From positions 1 to 6,779 of the IMG/VR virus record IMGVR_UViG_2693429713_000022: a stretch of DNA of 6,779 nucleotides; one strand, given 5' to 3'. The position numbers were made by a program, and so were the translations under genes. The notes under the pieces are model-generated. The model made no database searches, was not told the DNA's origin, and saw only the letters and a program-made list of their open reading frames with translations. The stretch is from a virus (Duplodnaviria > Heunggongvirae > Uroviricota > Caudoviricetes). Shown piece by piece: positions 1-6,779 of the stretch (positions are counted from its first letter, which is position 1; each line of letters begins with the position of its first letter).

Positions 1-12
1 GGTTTGGGAGAA
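1..12. other. Inner half of a candidate Din-family crossover site (site A); core and outer arm would lie just upstream of the window
   Basis: GGTTTGGGAGAA is the exact reverse complement of the 12-bp arm TTCTCCCAAACC found in sites B and C. Only half the site is visible, so this is provisional. Confidence 0.45.
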
Positions 13-453
13 GCGGCAAAACGAAATGTGGGCAACGGGGAAAACCAAATCCCTGATATGTCTTTCTGGACGGTTACTGGTGGCAATGGAAATTTTGTGA
101 TTCGTCAACCTGACGGGCTAATCATTCAGATGGTTACTGTAAGTATAAGCGGTCCAGTGGCGATGAATGGAATGACTGATAATGCTTATGCCATTACAGG
201 TTCTAATAAGTCTTATATTGCCACAGCCACATTGCCCTTTGTATTTCCTAATAAGGTGCTGGGCGTTATCCCTCTGGTATCAACAACAGCTTATGGTGGT
301 GTATCCAGTAATATTACAGGTTCATACGCGACGGCGGTTTGTTCTTTTGCCGCTGTCAGGGGGAATAATACGATTGTGTTCAAAGTCGACAAACCACTGA
401 ATGCAGCCTTTCCTTCAGATACCAGCGTCTCAGCGTTAATCATTGGACGGTAA
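1..453 (+). CDS. Tail-fibre protein, C-terminal receptor-binding cassette (partial; 5' part of the gene lies upstream of the window); left copy of the inverted repeat
   Basis: Open frame from position 1 (GLGEAAKRNVG...ALIIGR) ending at TAA 451-453, followed 2 nt later by a Tfa-family gene, the usual tail-fibre/chaperone pairing. The same 149 aa are encoded on the minus strand at 2512-2958. Gly/Ser/Thr/Asn-rich composition typical of fibre distal domains. No start codon in the window. Confidence 0.8.
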   Translation, partial: GLGEAAKRNVGNGENQIPDMSFWTVTGGNGNFVIRQPDGLIIQMVTVSISGPVAMNGMTDNAYAITGSNKSYIATATLPFVFPNKVLGVIPLVSTTAYGGVSSNITGSYATAVCSFAAVRGNNTIVFKVDKPLNAAFPSDTSVSALIIGR

Positions 454-455
454 GA

Positions 456-899
456 ATGAACTCAGTATTCTTTTCACCCGCAAGTAAAAGTTTTTATCTG
501 CAAGAATTGTTTCCAGAATATGAGGATGCGGGAACGCTTCCTGATGATGTTATTGAAATTACCAGAGAAACATATGAGCAATTTCTTGGGCTGCATCCAG
601 AAGGGAAAGAAATTGGCGCTGACAGTTCAGGACGGCCAATATGGATTAATTCCCCGCCGCCTTCAAAAGAGGATGAGATGCTGGCGGCTGAAATGAAAAA
701 GATATCTTTGGTTTCAGAAGTCAATACCTACATCAATACCCATCAGTGGCCTGGCAAAGCTGCTATTGGTCGTCTGAAAGGTTACGAGCTGGAACAATAT
801 AATTTATGGCTGGATTATCTGGACGCACTGGAACTGGTTGATACCTCCAGTGCTCCAGATATTGAATGGCCTACGCCTCCGGTAGTTCAGGCCAGATGA
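456..899 (+). CDS. Tail-fibre assembly protein (Tfa family), 147 aa
   Basis: ATG at 456, 2 nt after the fibre stop. C-terminal motif [26 protein letters not shown] resembles the conserved Tfa/Mu-U-type C-terminus and is shared in pattern with the convergent Tfa gene ([28 protein letters not shown]). Its first 54 codons lie inside IR-L. Confidence 0.8.
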   Translation: MNSVFFSPASKSFYLQELFPEYEDAGTLPDDVIEITRETYEQFLGLHPEGKEIGADSSGRPIWINSPPPSKEDEMLAAEMKKISLVSEVNTYINTHQWPGKAAIGRLKGYELEQYNLWLDYLDALELVDTSSAPDIEWPTPPVVQAR

Positions 900-1476
900 C
901 ATCCGGCGCGGTGCTGGTATCTGTTGCAGTCACCGCGTCAATGTAATCCAGCACAGCGTTAAGCCGGGTTGTTTCTGCCTGCGTCAGCTTCCGCCCGGCC
1001 TGCAATTTCAGCTGAATCAGACTAATGGAAGCCATAGCAGCATCAATCAGTGACTGGCGCCGTACTTCTGCCGCGTCTACTGCGGCGTTATGCTGTGCCT
1101 CAGTATCGGTCACCCATTTCTCACCATCCCATTTATCGTATGACGTTAACGGGGCGATAGTGGTTGTATTTTCAGGGTAATCACCCGGAACTGTGATTTC
1201 TTTTGATTCTCCTGTTTCGGTGCTATAGACGATTTCACCGCGATGGTCTGGCACATATTCCCATGAGTTAAAATCTGCAGAACGGCAAATTGCATAACCA
1301 GCTTTATATGAGCCAGGAGCATCTAAACAGGAACATGCCGGGATACCAACACCCACAGCAAGATATTCAGTTGATGTGGAAATATATTCCCGTGTTTCAC
1401 CATCATAATTATAAACGGTAATGTCTCCGGCCTTTGTGGCGATGAGTTCATTATTTAATACAGCTTTACTTATCAT
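871..1476 (-). CDS. Tail-fibre assembly protein (Tfa family), 201 aa, partner of the 253-aa fibre gene
   Basis: Start ATG (minus strand) at 1474-1476 overlaps the TGA stop of the upstream fibre gene as ATGA (1473-1476), suggesting translational coupling. Conserved Tfa C-terminal motif. Its 3' end overlaps the convergent Tfa gene by 29 bp (871-899). Confidence 0.8.
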
Positions 1477-2234
1477 GCAGCCCTCACAATATAATTAAAG
1501 GCGATGTTACGGGAGCGGGTTTCAGATGCTGTGCGAACTGAGCGAGATGCGTCGAATGTCCAGTTATAAGCGCCATAACCCTCAATAATTTCGGCTTCCT
1601 TTAGACCTGTAGATAATACTTGCCCATGTTGACTAAATGGCCCTGAACTAAGTACGTCTCTAAAAAGCTGGGTACGCCCAAAAGAACCAACAATATTCTG
1701 AATTGCATCATTCTGTGCAGATAATAAGTTACGACCAGAGTCAATCCCGCGCCCATCATCCCAGCCACGAATAAATTCACCGCGTAAATCTGGTAATTTT
1801 AATGTTGGGTAAGCCTTTGCCAGATTTGGGTACTTTTCAGAAGAAAATACTGCTCCGTTACATTTTAGCCACCCCGTTGGCGGAGTGGCGGAAGGCCACG
1901 GAACAGGCACACCAACGGGTAATGCCGAACCTTCTCCCAAACCAAGGTTTTCGAGAGCCGTTTTCACCGTGCCATCAGATTTGATATCGCCAAACGGATT
2001 CTTGCGGCTTAACAGCAGCGCACGAAGCGCGGTAAGCAGCTGGTCATGCCGCCCCTTCTCCAGGCTGGCACCGGATGCCTCCACCACGCTGCAGAGTTCT
2101 TCCTGCAACATGTCAAAGTAGTCATCATCCAGATCGGTGGCAGGTGTGCCGGTCTGGGGGTTACCACGGGTAAAACCGTTCTTACCCGCGCCGAACTTAT
2201 CCTTCTGCGCGGTTTTCGTGTCTATACGATGCAT
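1473..2234 (-). CDS. Small tail-fibre protein, 253 aa, with N-terminal fibre-attachment-type motif and phage tail-collar-like domain
   Basis: GGAG ribosome-binding site (plus-strand CTCC 2241-2244) 6 nt upstream of ATG 2232-2234. N-terminus [21 protein letters not shown]...[20 protein letters not shown] resembles conserved tail-fibre N-termini of the Mu S / P2 H type. The segment [12 protein letters not shown]...YPNLAKAYP...[17 protein letters not shown] (about 1746-1901) matches the tail-collar signature as I remember it. Crossover site B lies inside the gene at codons about 93-101. Confidence 0.8.
1932..1957. other. Candidate Din-family (gix/hix/cix/pix-type) 26-bp crossover site B
   Basis: TTCTCCCAAACC-AA-GGTTTTCGAGAG: two 12-bp imperfect inverted arms (9 of 12 positions symmetric) around a 2-bp AA core with the AAACC/GGTTT inner motif. 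It matches the hixL sequence I recall (TTCTTGAAAACCAAGGTTTTTGATAA) at about 20 of 26 positions. It sits at the constant/variable junction of the fibre gene, encoding ...ENLGLGE... on the minus strand. Confidence 0.65.
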
Positions 2235-2257
2235 GGATTACTCCGGATATTTAAAAA

Positions 2258-2509
2258 TTACGTAGGTATGCGAAGGGCAGAGTTTGTTAAGCACACACTC
2301 GACAACGGTGTCGCCCCAGATACGCAGTGCGGAATCACAGGGATCACGCCAATTTCTTTCCCTTCTGGATGCAGCCCAAGAAATTGCTCATATGTTTCTC
2401 TGGTAATTTCAATAACATCATCAGGAAGCGTTCCCGCATCCTCATATTCTGGAAACAATTCTTGCAGATAAAAACTTTTACTTGCGGGTGAAAAGAATAC
2501 TGAGTTCAT
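2258..2509 (-). pseudogene. Truncated Tfa remnant: 54 N-terminal codons from IR-R fused to 29 unrelated codons
   Basis: The first 54 aa are identical to the Tfa gene at 456-617. After the inverted-repeat boundary (2347/2346) the frame continues into unrelated sequence ([29 protein letters not shown]) and stops at 2258-2260, 83 aa total versus 147 aa for the intact copy. Confidence 0.55.
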
Positions 2510-2964
2510 TCTTACCGTCCAATGATTAACGCTGAGACGCTGGTATCTGAAGGAAAGGCTGCATTCAGTGGTTTGTCGACTTTGAACACAATCGTATTAT
2601 TCCCCCTGACAGCGGCAAAAGAACAAACCGCCGTCGCGTATGAACCTGTAATATTACTGGATACACCACCATAAGCTGTTGTTGATACCAGAGGGATAAC
2701 GCCCAGCACCTTATTAGGAAATACAAAGGGCAATGTGGCTGTGGCAATATAAGACTTATTAGAACCTGTAATGGCATAAGCATTATCAGTCATTCCATTC
2801 ATCGCCACTGGACCGCTTATACTTACAGTAACCATCTGAATGATTAGCCCGTCAGGTTGACGAATCACAAAATTTCCATTGCCACCAGTAACCGTCCAGA
2901 AAGACATATCAGGGATTTGGTTTTCCCCGTTGCCCACATTTCGTTTTGCCGCTTCTCCCAAACC
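2347..2964. repeat. Inverted repeat, right copy (IR-R), partner of 1-618
   Basis: See IR-L. The outer end at 2964 is set by the window start (position 1 pairs with 2964) and coincides with the end of the 12-bp arm of crossover site C, so the repeat may end at the recombination site. Confidence 0.9.
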
Positions 2965-3006
2965 AACGTTTATGAAAATGCAGAAATAACGAGCAAATGG
3001 CATCAT
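2512..3006 (-). CDS. Tail-fibre C-terminal cassette, pin-proximal copy; apparently lacks an N-terminal constant part in this orientation (silent or fragment cassette)
   Basis: Encodes the same 149 aa as 1-453 on the minus strand. The ORF extends only 14 codons beyond crossover site C to an ATG at 3004-3006 (MMPFARYFCIFINV...) with no fibre-like N-terminal domain. This resembles the short fibre fragment gene next to pin in e14, as I recall it. Confidence 0.6.
   Translation of the reverse strand: MMPFARYFCIFINVGLGEAAKRNVGNGENQIPDMSFWTVTGGNGNFVIRQPDGLIIQMVTVSISGPVAMNGMTDNAYAITGSNKSYIATATLPFVFPNKVLGVIPLVSTTAYGGVSSNITGSYATAVCSFAAVRGNNTIVFKVDKPLNAAFPSDTSVSALIIGR
2953..2978. other. Candidate Din-family crossover site C, next to the invertase gene
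   Basis: TTCTCCCAAACC-AA-CGTTTATGAAAA: left arm and AA core identical to site B, right arm more degenerate. It lies 55 bp upstream of the invertase start, the position where gix/cix-type sites sit relative to gin/cin. On the minus strand it encodes ...INVGLGE... in the same frame as site B. Confidence 0.6.
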
Positions 3007-3032: not shown

Positions 3033-3587
3033 ATGCTTATTGGCTATGTACGTGTGTCAACAAATGACCAGAACACAGATCTACAACGTAATGCGCTGAA
3101 CTGTGCAGGATGCGAGCTGATTTTTGAAGACAAGATAAGCGGTACAAAGTCCGAAAGGCCGGGACTGAAAAAACTGCTCAGGACATTATCGGCAGGCGAT
3201 ACGCTGGTGGTCTGGAAACTGGACCGACTGGGGCGCAGTATGCGGCATCTTGTCGTGCTGGTGGAGGAGTTGCGCGAACGAGGCATCAACTTTCGTAGTC
3301 TGACGGATTCAATTGATACCAGTACCCCAATGGGGCGCTTTTTCTTTCATGTGATGGGGGCCCTGGCTGAAATGGAACGAGAACTGATTGTTGAACGAAC
3401 AAAAGCTGGACTGGAAGCTGCTCGCGCACAGGGACGAATTGGTGGACGTCGTCCCAAACTTACACCAGAACAATGGGCACAAGCCGGACGATTAATTGCA
3501 TCAGGAGTTCCGCGCCAGAAAGTTGCGATTATCTATGATGTTGGCGTATCGACTTTGTATCAGAGGTTTCCGGCAGGAGATAAATAA
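3033..3587 (+). CDS. pin: Serine DNA invertase of the Pin/Gin/Cin/Hin (Din) family, 184 aa
   Basis: N-terminus MLIGYVRVSTNDQNTDLQRNAL is the hallmark Din-invertase start, with the catalytic serine at residue 9 (codon 3057-3059). The rest is near-collinear with Gin/Cin as I remember them (GDTLVVWKLDRLGRSM, GRFFFHVMGALAEMERELI, and a C-terminal HTH region GVPRQKVAIIYDVGVSTLYQRF). GGGAG ribosome-binding site at 3021-3025, 7 nt before the ATG. The track ORF starts at 2997, but 3033 is the supported start. Family assignment is confident; the pin symbol is by context (e14-like neighbours), not proven orthology. Confidence 0.93.
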   Translation: MLIGYVRVSTNDQNTDLQRNALNCAGCELIFEDKISGTKSERPGLKKLLRTLSAGDTLVVWKLDRLGRSMRHLVVLVEELRERGINFRSLTDSIDTSTPMGRFFFHVMGALAEMERELIVERTKAGLEAARAQGRIGGRRPKLTPEQWAQAGRLIASGVPRQKVAIIYDVGVSTLYQRFPAGDK

Positions 3588-3785
3588 AGACACAGCTCGT
3601 CGAATTCAAGAACGTGTGAGCCAATCTCATGATGATTCATTATTTTCACATAGAGTCAATGACAAAAAACGGCTGCAAGGTAAACCACAACGATGGCTTT
3701 GTTAATTGATAGCGGTTTTGGTACTAAATGATACAAATTAAAATGAATATCCTAGTGAATTACAACAATTTCAGGAGGAAATAGT

Positions 3786-3998
3786 ATGCCAAGAAAAACG
3801 CTAGAAAATTTGGTAAATGTTGCACGTCAGACTCAGGAAATAGCGGATAAGAGAAGCCGTTTTTTCGGGTATCTTGAACAGCATGGCTTGAAGAGGAATG
3901 AGGATAGTGCTCACCTTTTTGCTATGCATTTACGGTTGCAACACAATGAAAGAGATAATCTTGTCCATGAACTGATGTCCGGATTACATCATAAATAG
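3786..3998 (+). CDS. Hypothetical small protein, 70 aa, basic and His-rich; function unknown
   Basis: Strong AGGAGG ribosome-binding site at 3773-3778, 7 nt before ATG 3786. AT-rich. Convergent with the two-gene operon. I recognise no family. Confidence 0.5.
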   Translation: MPRKTLENLVNVARQTQEIADKRSRFFGYLEQHGLKRNEDSAHLFAMHLRLQHNERDNLVHELMSGLHHK

Positions 3999-4032
3999 TG
4001 CATCATTCGAGCAAGAATATTATAAGACAATA

Positions 4033-4055
4033 AACCAGCCAAAAACTGGCTGGTT
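4033..4055. terminator. Candidate bidirectional intrinsic terminator between convergent genes
   Basis: Hairpin AACCAGCC(A)-loop-(T)GGCTGGTT with an 8-9 bp stem, flanked by T-rich sequence on the minus-strand side (TATTGTCTTATAAT) and a TTTTT run 10 nt away on the plus-strand side. Lies between the 70-aa gene stop (3998) and the 114-aa gene stop (4083). U tracts are imperfect. Confidence 0.5.
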
Positions 4056-4082
4056 GAACGTTAACTTTTTGAATTTAATCAA

Positions 4083-4427
4083 TTAACTTTGGTGTATGTC
4101 TTGGTAAGTCTCATCCGTCAGAGCCAATTTCATGCAAATATCATCGTTAAGACTGACAATATCTTCGATCAGTTTATTGATCTCGAAATCGTTAAGTTTT
4201 GATACTGTTGCTTGAACTCGCCCCTCATCGCCAGTGGCATCAAACTTAGTCAGTTCCTTACATAATTCATCGAACCTGCTTTGTAAGGCATTTGGAATAT
4301 CATCGGCTGTTTTAAGATGCCCAAGGCTAAAAACATACGAATTAATCAAGCGTTCTTGAATACTTCCATGGCCCGCAAGAGTAAGTACTGCAGTATGAAA
4401 TTTTTCATGTGCATACTTTAAGGACAT
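4083..4427 (-). CDS. Hypothetical protein, 114 aa, mildly acidic; second gene of the cargo operon
   Basis: GGAGA ribosome-binding site (plus-strand TCTCC 4434-4438) 6 nt before ATG 4425-4427. Lies 51 bp downstream of the 343-aa gene on the same strand. AT-rich. No recognisable motif. Confidence 0.6.
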   Translation of the reverse strand: MSLKYAHEKFHTAVLTLAGHGSIQERLINSYVFSLGHLKTADDIPNALQSRFDELCKELTKFDATGDEGRVQATVSKLNDFEINKLIEDIVSLNDDICMKLALTDETYQDIHQS

Positions 4428-4478
4428 ATCTGGTCTCCGTGACTTATAACCTCAACCGACATAAATGGGGTTAAGTGA

Positions 4479-5510
4479 TTATTCTGAAACAATAGTGTTG
4501 AACTGACCTATAGAAACAGCACCCTTTTCAATTACCTCTAAGTAACTGATTTTAATATGAGAGTTGTTTGACAAAGCGTCAACAATAGCTGTCAACTCAT
4601 CTTGGGTGATAACATCAGCTGAAGCTTTGATTGTGAAGCATTCGTCATTAGAGACCCTAACAACGTTAATATTAATATCCTGATTTGTTGGCCCTGTTCT
4701 GGTTACACCTTTGATGGAAAATATATCAGTTCGTTCTTTACGTTCTCTATCTACAGATTGTCGGCTGTTGTAGGTATTTAGGTCTTGTCGTGTTAGTTTC
4801 TCATTTCCTAAAGTCACGGTTTCGACAGTAGGATCAGCAGCTAATTGCTTCACTAAAGCACTTTTACCTGCTTGTCCGTGACTAGTAACTTTATCGCTAA
4901 TCGCTGATTTCCCATAGATTTTATAATCTAATGTTGCTTCTATGGCTTTGTTTATGCCATCGGATGTGGTTTTTGCAATTTCAACCTGCCGATCAGTTGC
5001 ATGTCTTTCTGTTACGGCATTTTCTGAAATGTAGTGATAACCACATGTGCTGGCCGCGCCAACCATTGTGATTATAACAAGCATTTTCTGCCAGCCGTTC
5101 AGTCCAGACATAGTATCTCGCAAAAAATCAGTTACTGCGTTGATGATCTTGTCAGTGGTGCCTTCCGCATCACTAGAACCTTCGCTAATTTTAAAATTTA
5201 TATCAAGTCGTTGCTTGTCTTCATTAGTCAAGCGTTGAAGATTCTGCGATCCGTATCGTATGGTTGCAAACGCCCGCTGTATCTCCTCGTTGAGCATTGA
5301 CATACCAAACAACATTGCTGATGTAATTGATGAATGATACCGCTCTCCTTTTACATTTATGTCTAAGGATGGCCAGCCTGCAAACTTTACGTTAGGGAAA
5401 ATAAACTCTTTAGAATCAAGCCCCTCTCGGGCTTTCATTTCTTCCAGAAAGTTTAGAAAATCATCTTCACTACGGATCAGAAAATCAATCGAATCCACAG
5501 TAGCTTCCAT
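4479..5510 (-). CDS. Hypothetical protein, 343 aa, with a central hydrophobic (possible membrane) segment; first gene of the cargo operon
   Basis: Long ORF in an AT-rich region. AAGGA ribosome-binding site (plus-strand TCCTT 5518-5522) 7 nt before ATG 5508-5510. Hydrophobic stretch GWQKMLVIITMVGAASTCGYHYI at about residues 139-161 (roughly 5028-5096). No catalytic motif I can name. Confidence 0.75.
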   Translation of the reverse strand: MEATVDSIDFLIRSEDDFLNFLEEMKAREGLDSKEFIFPNVKFAGWPSLDINVKGERYHSSITSAMLFGMSMLNEEIQRAFATIRYGSQNLQRLTNEDKQRLDINFKISEGSSDAEGTTDKIINAVTDFLRDTMSGLNGWQKMLVIITMVGAASTCGYHYISENAVTERHATDRQVEIAKTTSDGINKAIEATLDYKIYGKSAISDKVTSHGQAGKSALVKQLAADPTVETVTLGNEKLTRQDLNTYNSRQSVDRERKERTDIFSIKGVTRTGPTNQDININVVRVSNDECFTIKASADVITQDELTAIVDALSNNSHIKISYLEVIEKGAVSIGQFNTIVSE

Positions 5511-5560: not shown

Positions 5561-5589
5561 TCAATAAAAAAGCCCGCAATTTGCGGGCT
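5561..5589 (-). terminator. Rho-independent terminator on the minus strand, downstream of ssrA and directly upstream of the cargo operon
   Basis: Minus strand reads GCCCGCAA-ATT-TTGCGGGC (stem from 5571-5589) followed by TTTTTTATTGA (5570-5561). Confidence 0.65.
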
Positions 5590-5719
5590 TCTTTCACACT
5601 TGAGAGCCGCGGCTCCTTTGCGTATCCTTTTTTGTCTCCTCACCGTCTGGTCGGTGTCCTGCTGAGACTGCTAACTTCCTGTTTTTGTTGGTGTTGTCCT
5701 TACACCGTCCAATCATGAT

Positions 5720-6082
5720 TGGTGGAGCTGGCGGGAGTTGAACCCGCGTCCGAAATTCCTACATCCTCGGTACTACATGCTTAGTCAGTCTTTACATTCG
5801 CTTGCCAGCTGCGGACGGACACGCCACTAACAAACTAGCCTGATTAAGTTTTAACGCTTCAACCCCAGGCAGGGCTTCCACGCGATCTCTTTTGGGTTTG
5901 ACCTCTCTTGATCCCCGTCCTAAGAGCGGAGGCTAGGGAGAGAGGGCTCTAAGCAGGTTATTAAGCTGCTAAAGCGTAGTTTTCGTCGTTTGCGACTATT
6001 TTTTGCGGCTTTTTACGAGGCCAACCGCCCCTCGGCATGCACCTTGGGTTTCGCAAATCCCGTCGAATCCAGAATCAGCCCC
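5720..6082 (-). ncRNA. ssrA: tmRNA (SsrA), 363 nt
   Basis: Reverse complement of 6059-6082 is GGGGCTGATTCTGGATTCGACGGG (tmRNA 5' end) and of 5720-5760 ends ...GGGTTCAACTCCCGCCAGCTCCACCA (tRNA-like 3' end with CCA). The tag reading frame GCAAACGACGAAAACTACGCTTTAGCAGCTTAA (ANDENYALAA-stop) is the reverse complement of 5961-5993. Matches the E. coli-type tmRNA as I remember it along its length. Confidence 0.95.
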
Positions 6083-6102: not shown

Positions 6103-6296
6103 CCAGATTTATGAGCGCCATGACCAGCCTCAATGGCGTTATCGTTAAAGATTTAGCACCCATGTAGCCTGATTTTTATTCGATTAAGCAATGGGATGGC
6201 AACATTTGTGTCGGATGTGATAGCCAATAAGATGTTGATTCGCGCCGCCGGAGAGGGAGGCGCGGTGAGGAACTGGTCAATAATTGGAGTGCAGGT

Positions 6297-6779
6297 TTAA
6301 CGGTGGGCGTTTTTCATGATACGTGCTTTATCCACCTGCCATTCGCGTTCTTTGATATCTGAACGTTTATCGTGCTGTTTTTTACCTTTGGCGACGCCGA
6401 TTTTCACTTTGCACCAGGCATTTTTCCAGTACAGGGAGAGCGCCACTACGGTATAGCCTTCTCGATTGACGCGACCGTACAATGAGTCCAGTTCGCGCTG
6501 GTTGAGAAGTAACTTGCGGGTACGGGTAGGATCGCACACCACATGCGTGGAGGCCACGGCCATTGGCGTGATGTTAGCGCCAAACAGAAATGCCTCTCCG
6601 TCACGCAGAAGGACGTAGCTGTCGCTGATATTGGCTTTTCCTGCGCGCAGGGATTTAACCTCCCAGCCTTGCAGGGCAAGTCCCGCTTCGAACTCTTCTT
6701 CGATAAAGTATTCGTGACGGGCGCGCTTGTTAAGCGCGATGGTCGCTGAACCAGGTTTATGTGCTTTTTTCTTCGTCAT
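6297..6779 (-). CDS. smpB: SsrA-binding protein SmpB, 160 aa
   Basis: Full-length [75 protein letters not shown]... with the start codon at the last three bases of the window (6777-6779). Directly upstream of ssrA on the same strand, the canonical smpB-ssrA arrangement. Confidence 0.95.

Follow-up and report, generated by a model that had tools for sequence, protein, structure and literature searches.

Site-specific inversion systems such as Min of plasmid p15B and the shufflons combine one recombinase with more than two crossover sites and can adopt several isomers. They are conserved, and each of their invertible units carries a distinct 3' gene segment. The C segment of P1 is built on long inverted repeats, and in our measurement its arms were 636 nt long with 98% complementarity, were separated by 3,006 nt and were bounded on the outside by cixL and cixR. 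This agreed with the P1 geometry given in an earlier sequence-only reading of the DNA studied here, namely arms of about 0.6 kb with cix sites at their outer ends. The closest described system is the e14 P segment of E. coli K-12 (ymfQ-stfP-tfaP-tfaE-stfE-pinE), which has the same gene order as the parental form of our locus. This system, with its invertase PinE, is already well known. Inversion is carried out by PinE, PinQ and PinR, orientations are mixed within cultures, and the published e14 repeats are TTGGTTTGGGAGAAGG and CCTTCTCCCAAACCAA (PMC12529663).

The window, that is, the whole stretch of DNA analysed, is 6,779 nucleotides long. The locus is an IS3-truncated, e14-like prophage remnant beside ssrA and smpB. 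IS3 has cut the remnant down to ymfQ-stf-tfa-pin and three uncharacterised genes. We compared the window with two closed genomes, CD45 and 602687, and its features are as follows.

1-618, plus strand: left arm, the first copy of segment 'a' (Sv1 and tfa codons 1-54), cut by the window/contig edge.
1-12: crossover site A, represented by its inner half-site GGTTTGGGAGAA (reverse complement of TTCTCCCAAACC); its 2-bp core falls just beyond the window edge, at 1-2 nt.
1-453, plus strand: Sv1, 150 codons for the variable C-terminus of the short tail fibre (gp53-like C-terminal domain; Pfam PF21882, slightly under the cut-off).
456-899, plus strand: tfa1, a complete tail-fibre assembly (chaperone) gene of 147 aa (Pfam Caudo_TAP, E=6e-27).
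871-1476, minus strand: tfaE-like tail-fibre assembly gene of 200/201 aa (Pfam Caudo_TAP, E=6e-32), named tfaE in 602687.
1473-2234, minus strand: complete 253-aa fibre gene, its constant N-terminal part (2234 to about 1946) joined across site B to Sv2 (Pfam Collar domain).
1932-1957: crossover site B, TTCTCCCAAACC AA GGTTTTCGAGAG, inverted relative to A and direct relative to C.
1944-2346, minus strand: left flank repeated in inverted orientation, comprising the core and 401 bp, 100% identical to the reverse complement of the 602687 locus at 6277-6679.
2346-2347: the only novel junction when the parent and window sequences are set side by side, between the antisense ymfQ 3' fragment and antisense tfa codon 54/55.
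2347-2964, minus strand: right arm, the second copy of segment 'a', with a promoterless Sv1 (2512-2964) and tfa codons 1-54.
2953-2978: crossover site C, adjoining pin, TTCTCCCAAACC AA CGTTTATGAAAA, identical to the right-hand site of CD45 and 602687.
3033-3587, plus strand: pin, serine invertase of 184 aa (Pfam Resolvase, E=2e-51; HTH_7, E=4e-13).
5720-6082, minus strand: ssrA (tmRNA), chromosomal context and island edge (ARAGORN; annotated in CD45 and 602687).
6297-6779, minus strand: smpB, whose start codon is the exact end of the window.

The sequence-only reading had noted an apparently perfect 618-bp inverted repeat that ends abruptly between tfa codons 54 and 55, and both points were borne out. 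The repeat is real in the given sequence, as an exact comparison of 1-618 with the reverse complement of 2347-2964 gave 0 mismatches. Identity stops 1 base into codon 55, and beyond the inner ends (619 onward against 2346 downward) matching falls to the random level. Each arm comprises the final 150 codons of the fibre gene with its stop codon (1-453 in the left arm), tfa codons 1-54 (456-617) and 1 base of codon 55. The length of 618 bp is a lower bound for the repeat, because the left arm reaches the window edge at base 1. The arms are separated by a spacer of 1,728 bp (619-2346) that contains the third crossover site, B, and, in antisense, the constant N-terminal part of the fibre gene with a fragment of ymfQ. 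The antisense stretch 1944-2346 consists of the stf constant part, separated by 3 nt from the terminal 109 nt of ymfQ (2238-2346); the ymfQ end corresponds to position 6385 of the 602687 locus.

Sv1 is read in a frame that lacks a start codon; in the usual arrangement, the crossover site is where it is joined to the constant part. In CD45, Sv1 forms the 3' end of a 247-aa CDS, and in both closed genomes tfa1 is annotated as "tail fiber assembly protein". A fibre product identical to that of the 253-aa gene was found after ymfQ, its normal position, in 10 distinct contexts. At the inner end of the right arm, an 83-aa ORF (2258-2509) consists of tfa codons 1-54 fused to 29 out-of-frame codons derived from ymfQ; an exact look-up of this product gave nothing on record. 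Pin is intact, with the resolvase catalytic domain and C-terminal HTH of a small serine recombinase. The 5' region of pin (about 3051-3122) aligned without gaps to the enhancer annotated at nt 19-90 of P1 cin, with most columns identical. This putative enhancer region is nearly identical in K-12 pinE, a similarity that lies within coding DNA. The three genes between pin and ssrA had no matches in Pfam, PADLOC or NCBIfam; their sole match was that of the 343-aa protein to PHROG 6191, a family of unknown function.

The natural half-site is present in all three crossover sites, and the window half-sites match the published e14 repeats. Sites B and C are 26 bp long and imperfectly symmetric with a 2-bp core, A is seen as a half-site only, and A is in inverted orientation to the other two. 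The position of site A at base 1 bears on how the sequence was assembled. The 150-aa product that begins at base 1 and is partial at this edge is on record in 1,479 blocks. All 10 of the contigs listed start at this site with TT followed directly by GGTTTGGGAGAAGCGG (also given as TT followed by GGTTTGGG). The left edge thus falls at a crossover core where many draft contigs stop, which indicates a short-read contig broken at an inversion-caused branch; base 1 is almost certainly 2 nt from the end of such a contig. Short-read assemblies routinely break exactly at the crossover core of invertible fibre segments (1,479 blocks). The warning that such repeats are assembly hazards was apt, as the contig apparently stops at site A. 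Long perfect inverted repeats at the contig edge of such loci should be compared with closed relatives before an architecture is called.

That comparison was made with CD45 and 602687, which carry the same DNA (99.9-100% identical to the window over the segment) in the form of an ordinary two-site switch whose repeats are 20 nt long; the orientation of the segment in CD45 is opposite to that in 602687. All 10 distinct contexts examined were likewise plain two-site loci. Among the relatives examined, the arm architecture is not conserved; all have 20-nt repeats only. The closest closed relative, 602687, has a single copy of the tfa part of the arm. At 100% identity, the window equals the reverse complement of the 602687 locus at 6277-8622 followed by positions 8004-12437 of the same locus.

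We consider it about 60% probable that the repeat is a one-off, very recent duplication in an e14-type Pin tail-fibre switch that was remodelled by inversions. First, one recent tandem duplication of 1,021 bp would have spanned the left crossover site. The duplicated unit would comprise 401 bp (the ymfQ 3' end and the stf constant part), the 2-bp core, and the 618 bp of Sv1 and tfa codons 1-54. In addition, this duplication would have yielded a third crossover site and one illegitimate junction, at 2346/2347. Finally, ordinary Pin-family inversions, site 2 by site 3 and then site 1 by site 3, would have made the 618-bp inverted repeat out of part of the direct duplication. In the observed isomer, the model places CTCGAAAACCTT immediately left of base 1. 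This order of events and the place of the stf constant part left of base 1 are inferred. A simulation on the 602687 locus with one duplication and two inversions at the 2-bp cores reproduced all 6,779 bases exactly, and none of the 3 other simulated isomers contained the window. The second copy of the left flank in the spacer, with the stf constant part and the ymfQ 3' end, is the signature of a tandem duplication across the left site followed by inversions. The window has a single novel junction, its other joins lie at natural sites, its copies are identical, and it can be derived from a plain parent. The earlier suggestion of a recent duplication fits the 100% arm identity and the unique junction.

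The junction 2346/2347 is an illegitimate join. It shows a microhomology of 1 bp (C), or of 3 bp (TCA) with a 1-nt loss, and no crossover motif. A 300-bp probe spanning it had no place covering at least 80% of its length in 5,426 complete E. coli genomes; in 602687 the probe, which is half ymfQ/stf-side and half tfa-side, matched only 2 places. The 40-, 30- and 22-mers across the junction (22-mer CACAGGGATCACGCCAATTTCT) had no match in GTDB genome, metagenome or viral contigs. Against the duplication model, the junction is a singleton, present in no other genome or contig searched, and a short-read assembler would have to resolve two 618-bp copies in one contig, which is possible but not routine.

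Other origins of the junction were considered and rejected. Pin recombination at a pseudo-site does not explain it, as there is no CCAAACC-like motif (at most 1 mismatch) near 618 or 2346, and the parental sequences at the breakpoints likewise lack similarity to the site. IS3 did not mediate it, as the junction does not coincide with the IS3 end, which is about 470 bp away from the breakpoint. A natural mosaic boundary at tfa codon 54/55 is unsupported, as other contigs match the window through 726-845 nt. Inversion of the 602687 locus at 6277-8003 as the sole event would put the ymfQ 5' part, and not a second Sv1-tfa, left of 619.

The singleton status of the junction in every collection searched is also what an assembly or library artefact would predict. 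On that account, the cell carries an ordinary two-site locus, probably in mixed orientations, the join at 2346/2347 is a fold-back chimera, and the repeat is absent from the cell. A chimeric long read, an amplification chimera or a scaffolder mis-join could be the source. Formally the window is a fold-back, the reverse complement of the 602687 locus at 6277-8622 plus 8004 onward, and this geometry is typical of strand-displacement and template-switch chimeras. Moreover, the contig stops at a crossover site, the locus breaks assemblies very often, and cultures are mixed in orientation (PMC12529663). However, the junction is flanked on either side by otherwise unbranched sequence with at most 3 nt shared, so that a k-mer graph needs reads across it at assembling coverage. 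With no motif and no more than 1-3 bp of microhomology, no de Bruijn path creates this join unless reads span it. Single chimeric inserts are unique and normally pruned, the contig end exactly at the 2-bp core indicates a de Bruijn short-read and not a long-read assembly, and a nanopore template/complement fold-back would have no 1,728-bp spacer. We regard an artefact as less likely than the duplication, at something over one chance in five, and infer that the junction is present in the DNA of the cell.

A real rearrangement other than a local tandem duplication could also have left this junction, and we regard this as less probable still. It might be a replication template-switch event (a fold-back or 'tandem inversion duplication'), or an inversion of 6277-8003 combined with a mis-phased left arm, in which 1-618 came from a second prophage with the same Sv1-tfa module. 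The inversion also joins the reverse complement of 6277 to 8004, the Sv1-tfa module is widespread in P2-like and Mu-like prophages, and some contigs match the window perfectly over 726-845 nt counted from the core. Nevertheless, each variant requires an additional, unobserved illegitimate junction that the duplication model can do without, and only one copy of the tfa part of the arm exists in the closest closed relative. Moreover, E. coli would not stably maintain a long perfect palindrome with the site at its centre.

Under the tandem duplication model, an accidental, not designed, three-site system interconverts between four isomers, of which the repeat is one. It had been predicted that an A by C inversion would present the same fibre C-terminus, and the computed isomer indeed presents the same Sv1. 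By computation, RecA-dependent inversion between the arms and Pin inversion at A and C give an identical sequence and hence the same isomer. In the A by C isomer, the chaperone gene is reduced to the truncated 83-aa fusion, which makes the two orientations functionally unequal. In isomers with the inverted repeat, homologous recombination between the arms would invert the intervening DNA and not delete the extra copy. If the duplication is real, the locus illustrates how an unstable direct duplication can become an inverted one through site-specific inversion. The copy sits in a decayed prophage remnant, and little biology depends on it. Other tail genes are missing from the locus, so the rearrangement is probably neutral.

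Compared with the e14 P segment, the locus has a Pin 98% identical to PinE, a shared crossover motif and a nearly identical putative enhancer region. Both have a Mu gp48-like ymfQ upstream of a short fibre whose N-terminus is constant and whose C-terminus can be switched. They differ in that the window element lies at ssrA and is truncated by IS3, whereas K-12 e14 lies at icd. The variable modules of the window are unlike those of K-12, and it has an extra 1,021-bp copy, three sites and a 618-bp repeat in place of 16-20-nt repeats.

With the P1 C segment, the likeness drawn in the sequence-only reading stood for the geometry but not for the architecture. The arms lie directly inside the sites in both, abutting A and C here and cixL and cixR in P1. 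Both invertases belong to one serine invertase family; the enhancer is annotated in the 5' end of cin, and a putative one lies in the aligned region of pin. However, the P1 arms cover only the proximal part of Sv and Sv'; the distal parts and U and U' differ, so that inversion changes host range. The window arms go beyond a shared proximal part to include all of the fibre tip through its stop codon, followed by 54 tfa codons. Two sites are present in P1, which carries its 98% identical arms as a constant feature; in the window there are three sites, and the 100% identical arms are unique to one sequence. An evolved long-arm or multi-site architecture, selected for fibre switching in the manner of the P1 C segment, Min or the shufflons, could draw on the 636-nt P1 arms with cix at their outer ends and on the three sites with natural half-sites in the window. 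This reading is effectively refuted. The arrangement is missing from the 5,426 complete E. coli genomes, and the relatives examined have only their 20-nt repeats. In addition, the arms hold the entire fibre tip, so that an A by C inversion leaves the fibre unchanged and truncates the chaperone. The B-C unit carries a promoterless flank fragment and no new fibre module. Finally, the 100% identity of the arms to each other and to the plain-locus relative indicates a very recent event.

Three sites and four possible isomers also recall Min and the shufflons, in which each unit brings its own 3' segment; the B-C unit of the window, seen once, has nothing beyond a second Sv1, a shortened tfa and a piece of the flank in antisense. 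We tentatively propose, at slightly less than even odds, that the locus is a newborn three-site system, in which a duplication across one site makes a binary Pin switch a four-isomer one, with the duplicate copies inverted in two of the isomers. A real duplication would make the locus a small natural example of a two-site DNA switch gaining a third site. If the newborn-system proposal is true, the window captures an initial stage from which multi-site systems such as Min and the shufflons could develop.

We compared bases 1-618 exactly with the reverse complement of 2347-2964 and found 0 mismatches, and matching fell to the random level past the inner ends of both arms. The perfect repeat and sharp inner boundaries claimed by the sequence-only reading were thus confirmed. 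Because the left arm extends to base 1, the length of 618 bp is a lower bound. In the arm, a 2-nt spacer separates the stop codon of the fibre gene from tfa. The features of the window are as follows.

1-12: inner half of crossover site A
1-453: fibre-gene 3' end in the arm (last 150 codons and stop), gp53-like C-terminal domain
456-617: start of the tail-fibre assembly gene (tfa, Caudo_TAP) in the arm, codons 1-54, plus one base of codon 55
619-2346: spacer between the arms, with the rest of tfa1, tfaE, a fibre gene and a ymfQ fragment
within 619-2346, minus strand: tfaE
within 619-2346, minus strand: complete 253-aa fibre gene (constant part and Sv2), spanning site B
1932-1957: crossover site B
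2238-2346, antisense: last 109 nt of ymfQ
2953-2978: crossover site C
3033-3587: pin, Resolvase and HTH_7 domains
3786-3998, plus strand: conserved hypothetical, 70 aa
4083-4427, minus strand: conserved hypothetical, 114 aa
4479-5510, minus strand: conserved hypothetical, 343 aa
5720-6082: ssrA, right of the switch
6297-6779: smpB, right of the switch; the window's last bases are exactly the smpB start codon

Sites A, B and C are built on a common half-site, TTCTCCCAAACC, with AA as the core, in agreement with the published e14 P-segment repeats (PMC12529663). The window Pin is 98% identical to K-12 PinE. The 5' region of pin aligned without gaps to the annotated P1 cin enhancer; this region is coding DNA and almost identical to that of K-12 pinE. 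Beside pin, the silent Sv1 copy (2512-3006, minus strand) reads past site C to an in-frame ATG, giving a 163/164-aa ORF across the site that closed-genome annotations label a hypothetical protein. This ORF is probably no independent gene but an artefact of a frame that happens to stay open.

BLAST and exact string tests showed that the window equals the reverse complement of 6277-8622 of the closed 602687 locus followed by 8004-12437 of the same locus, at 100% identity. The only join away from a natural site is 2346/2347, where the ymfQ 3' fragment meets tfa codon 54/55. Microhomology there amounts to 1 bp (C), or to 3 bp (TCA) if 1 nt was lost, and no crossover-site motif was found at the join. 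The spanning sequence had no place in 5,426 complete E. coli genomes, the junction had no match in GTDB genome, metagenome or viral contigs and was absent from all 22 loci compared, and no record of the 83-aa fusion ORF was found.

The closed loci of CD45 and 602687 share the order IS3, ymfQ, stf(constant)-site-[Sv, tfa, tfa, Sv]-site, pinE, three hypotheticals, ssrA and smpB, as does K-12 e14. The invertible segment faces opposite ways in the two loci, and in each a 20-nt inverted repeat, and no longer one, surrounds 1,917 nt. Each of ten further distinct contexts encoding the identical 253-aa fibre was likewise a plain two-site locus. Upstream of IS3, CD45 and 602687 also carry a 143-nt fragment 85% identical to mid-pin (window 3156-3296), within an annotated partial recombinase pseudogene (7992-8159 and 3561-3728, respectively). 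The fragment is what is left of a second invertase gene in the island.

We simulated the simplest history, starting from the 602687 locus. The locus would be flipped at the cores to the opposite orientation and would then undergo a 1,021-bp tandem duplication across the left site, the unit comprising the ymfQ'/stf constant part (401 bp), the 2-bp core, and Sv1 with tfa codons 1-54 (618 bp). Inversions between sites 2 and 3 and then sites 1 and 3 would follow. The product includes all 6,779 bp of the window exactly, and none of the three other isomers does; therefore, a single illegitimate event followed by ordinary inversions by Pin would suffice. The model predicts ...GGCACGGTGAAAACGGCTCTCGAAAACCTT to the left of base 1. 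Among the four simulated isomers, the 618-bp copies are inverted in two and direct in two. The product of Pin inversion between A and C is, base for base, that of homologous recombination between the arms, with the co-oriented order stf(Sv1), 83-aa truncated Tfa fusion, stf(Sv2), tfaE. The sequence-only reading expected an A x C inversion to present the same fibre C-terminus; the tip is indeed unchanged in this isomer, but the chaperone gene is truncated.

An edge-partial 150-aa product predicted from base 1 was recorded in 1,479 blocks; the longest contig was <2 kb in 1,370 of these. All ten contigs listed (loci L013-L022, bases 1-3) begin with TT followed by GGTTTGGGAGAAGCGG, at the 2-bp crossover core and 2 nt ahead of window base 1. 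These observations indicate that short-read and draft assemblies routinely end exactly at the core of the fibre module, which fits the published finding that cultures contain both segment orientations and that PinE, PinQ and PinR each invert the segment (PMC12529663). We infer that the window opens with the first complete codon of a short-read contig whose end lay at site A. The Sv1-tfa module also occurs in P2-like, Mu-like/e14-like and remnant prophages.

A contig end at the exact core argues for de Bruijn short-read assembly. Since the parents have at most 3 nt in common at 2346/2347 and the join lies in sequence unbranched on both sides, a k-mer graph needs spanning reads to make this join. 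Both points favour a real junction, and we give the duplication model a probability of about 0.6. A chimera or mis-join is unlikely. A real rearrangement of another kind would involve a second, unseen junction and is more doubtful still. The tfa part of the arm is single-copy in 602687, the closest closed relative, which speaks against mis-phasing from a second prophage. The system is an ordinary known one with a singleton duplication, an artefact being less likely.

The three genes between pin and ssrA (3786-5510) had no match in Pfam, PADLOC or NCBIfam; the sole match was of the 343-aa protein to PHROG 6191 (unknown function). The corresponding position downstream of pin is occupied in relatives by McrA/HNH (K-12 and L008), GmrSD (L003 and L020), or a GIY-YIG nuclease together with a DpnII/MboI-like gene (L016 and L020). 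This position is a variable, defence-type cargo slot, so the three genes may be uncharacterised anti-phage genes. Just downstream of ssrA, on the minus strand, 5566-5594 contains a GC-rich hairpin with a trailing run of T's (AAAAAAGCCCGCAA/TTGCGGGCTTCTTT), apparently the ssrA terminator. Similarity to strain PS1Thumoskin9 ends at 5753, within the ssrA 3' end, which suggests that the island boundary, an att-like duplication of that end, is located here.

What the sequence-only reading said of the P1 C segment is correct: its arms measured 636 nt, were 98% complementary and lay 3,006 nt from each other, cixL and cixR being outermost. The geometry is alike; the design is not homologous. The P1 arms encode only the proximal Sv/Sv' portion, so inversion alters the fibre tip, whereas the window arms carry the entire tip and are 100% identical, with a third crossover site between them, in an arrangement unique to this sequence. 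The earlier observation stands and its interpretation holds in part: the system belongs to the Pin/e14 P-segment family, with a one-off structural variant.
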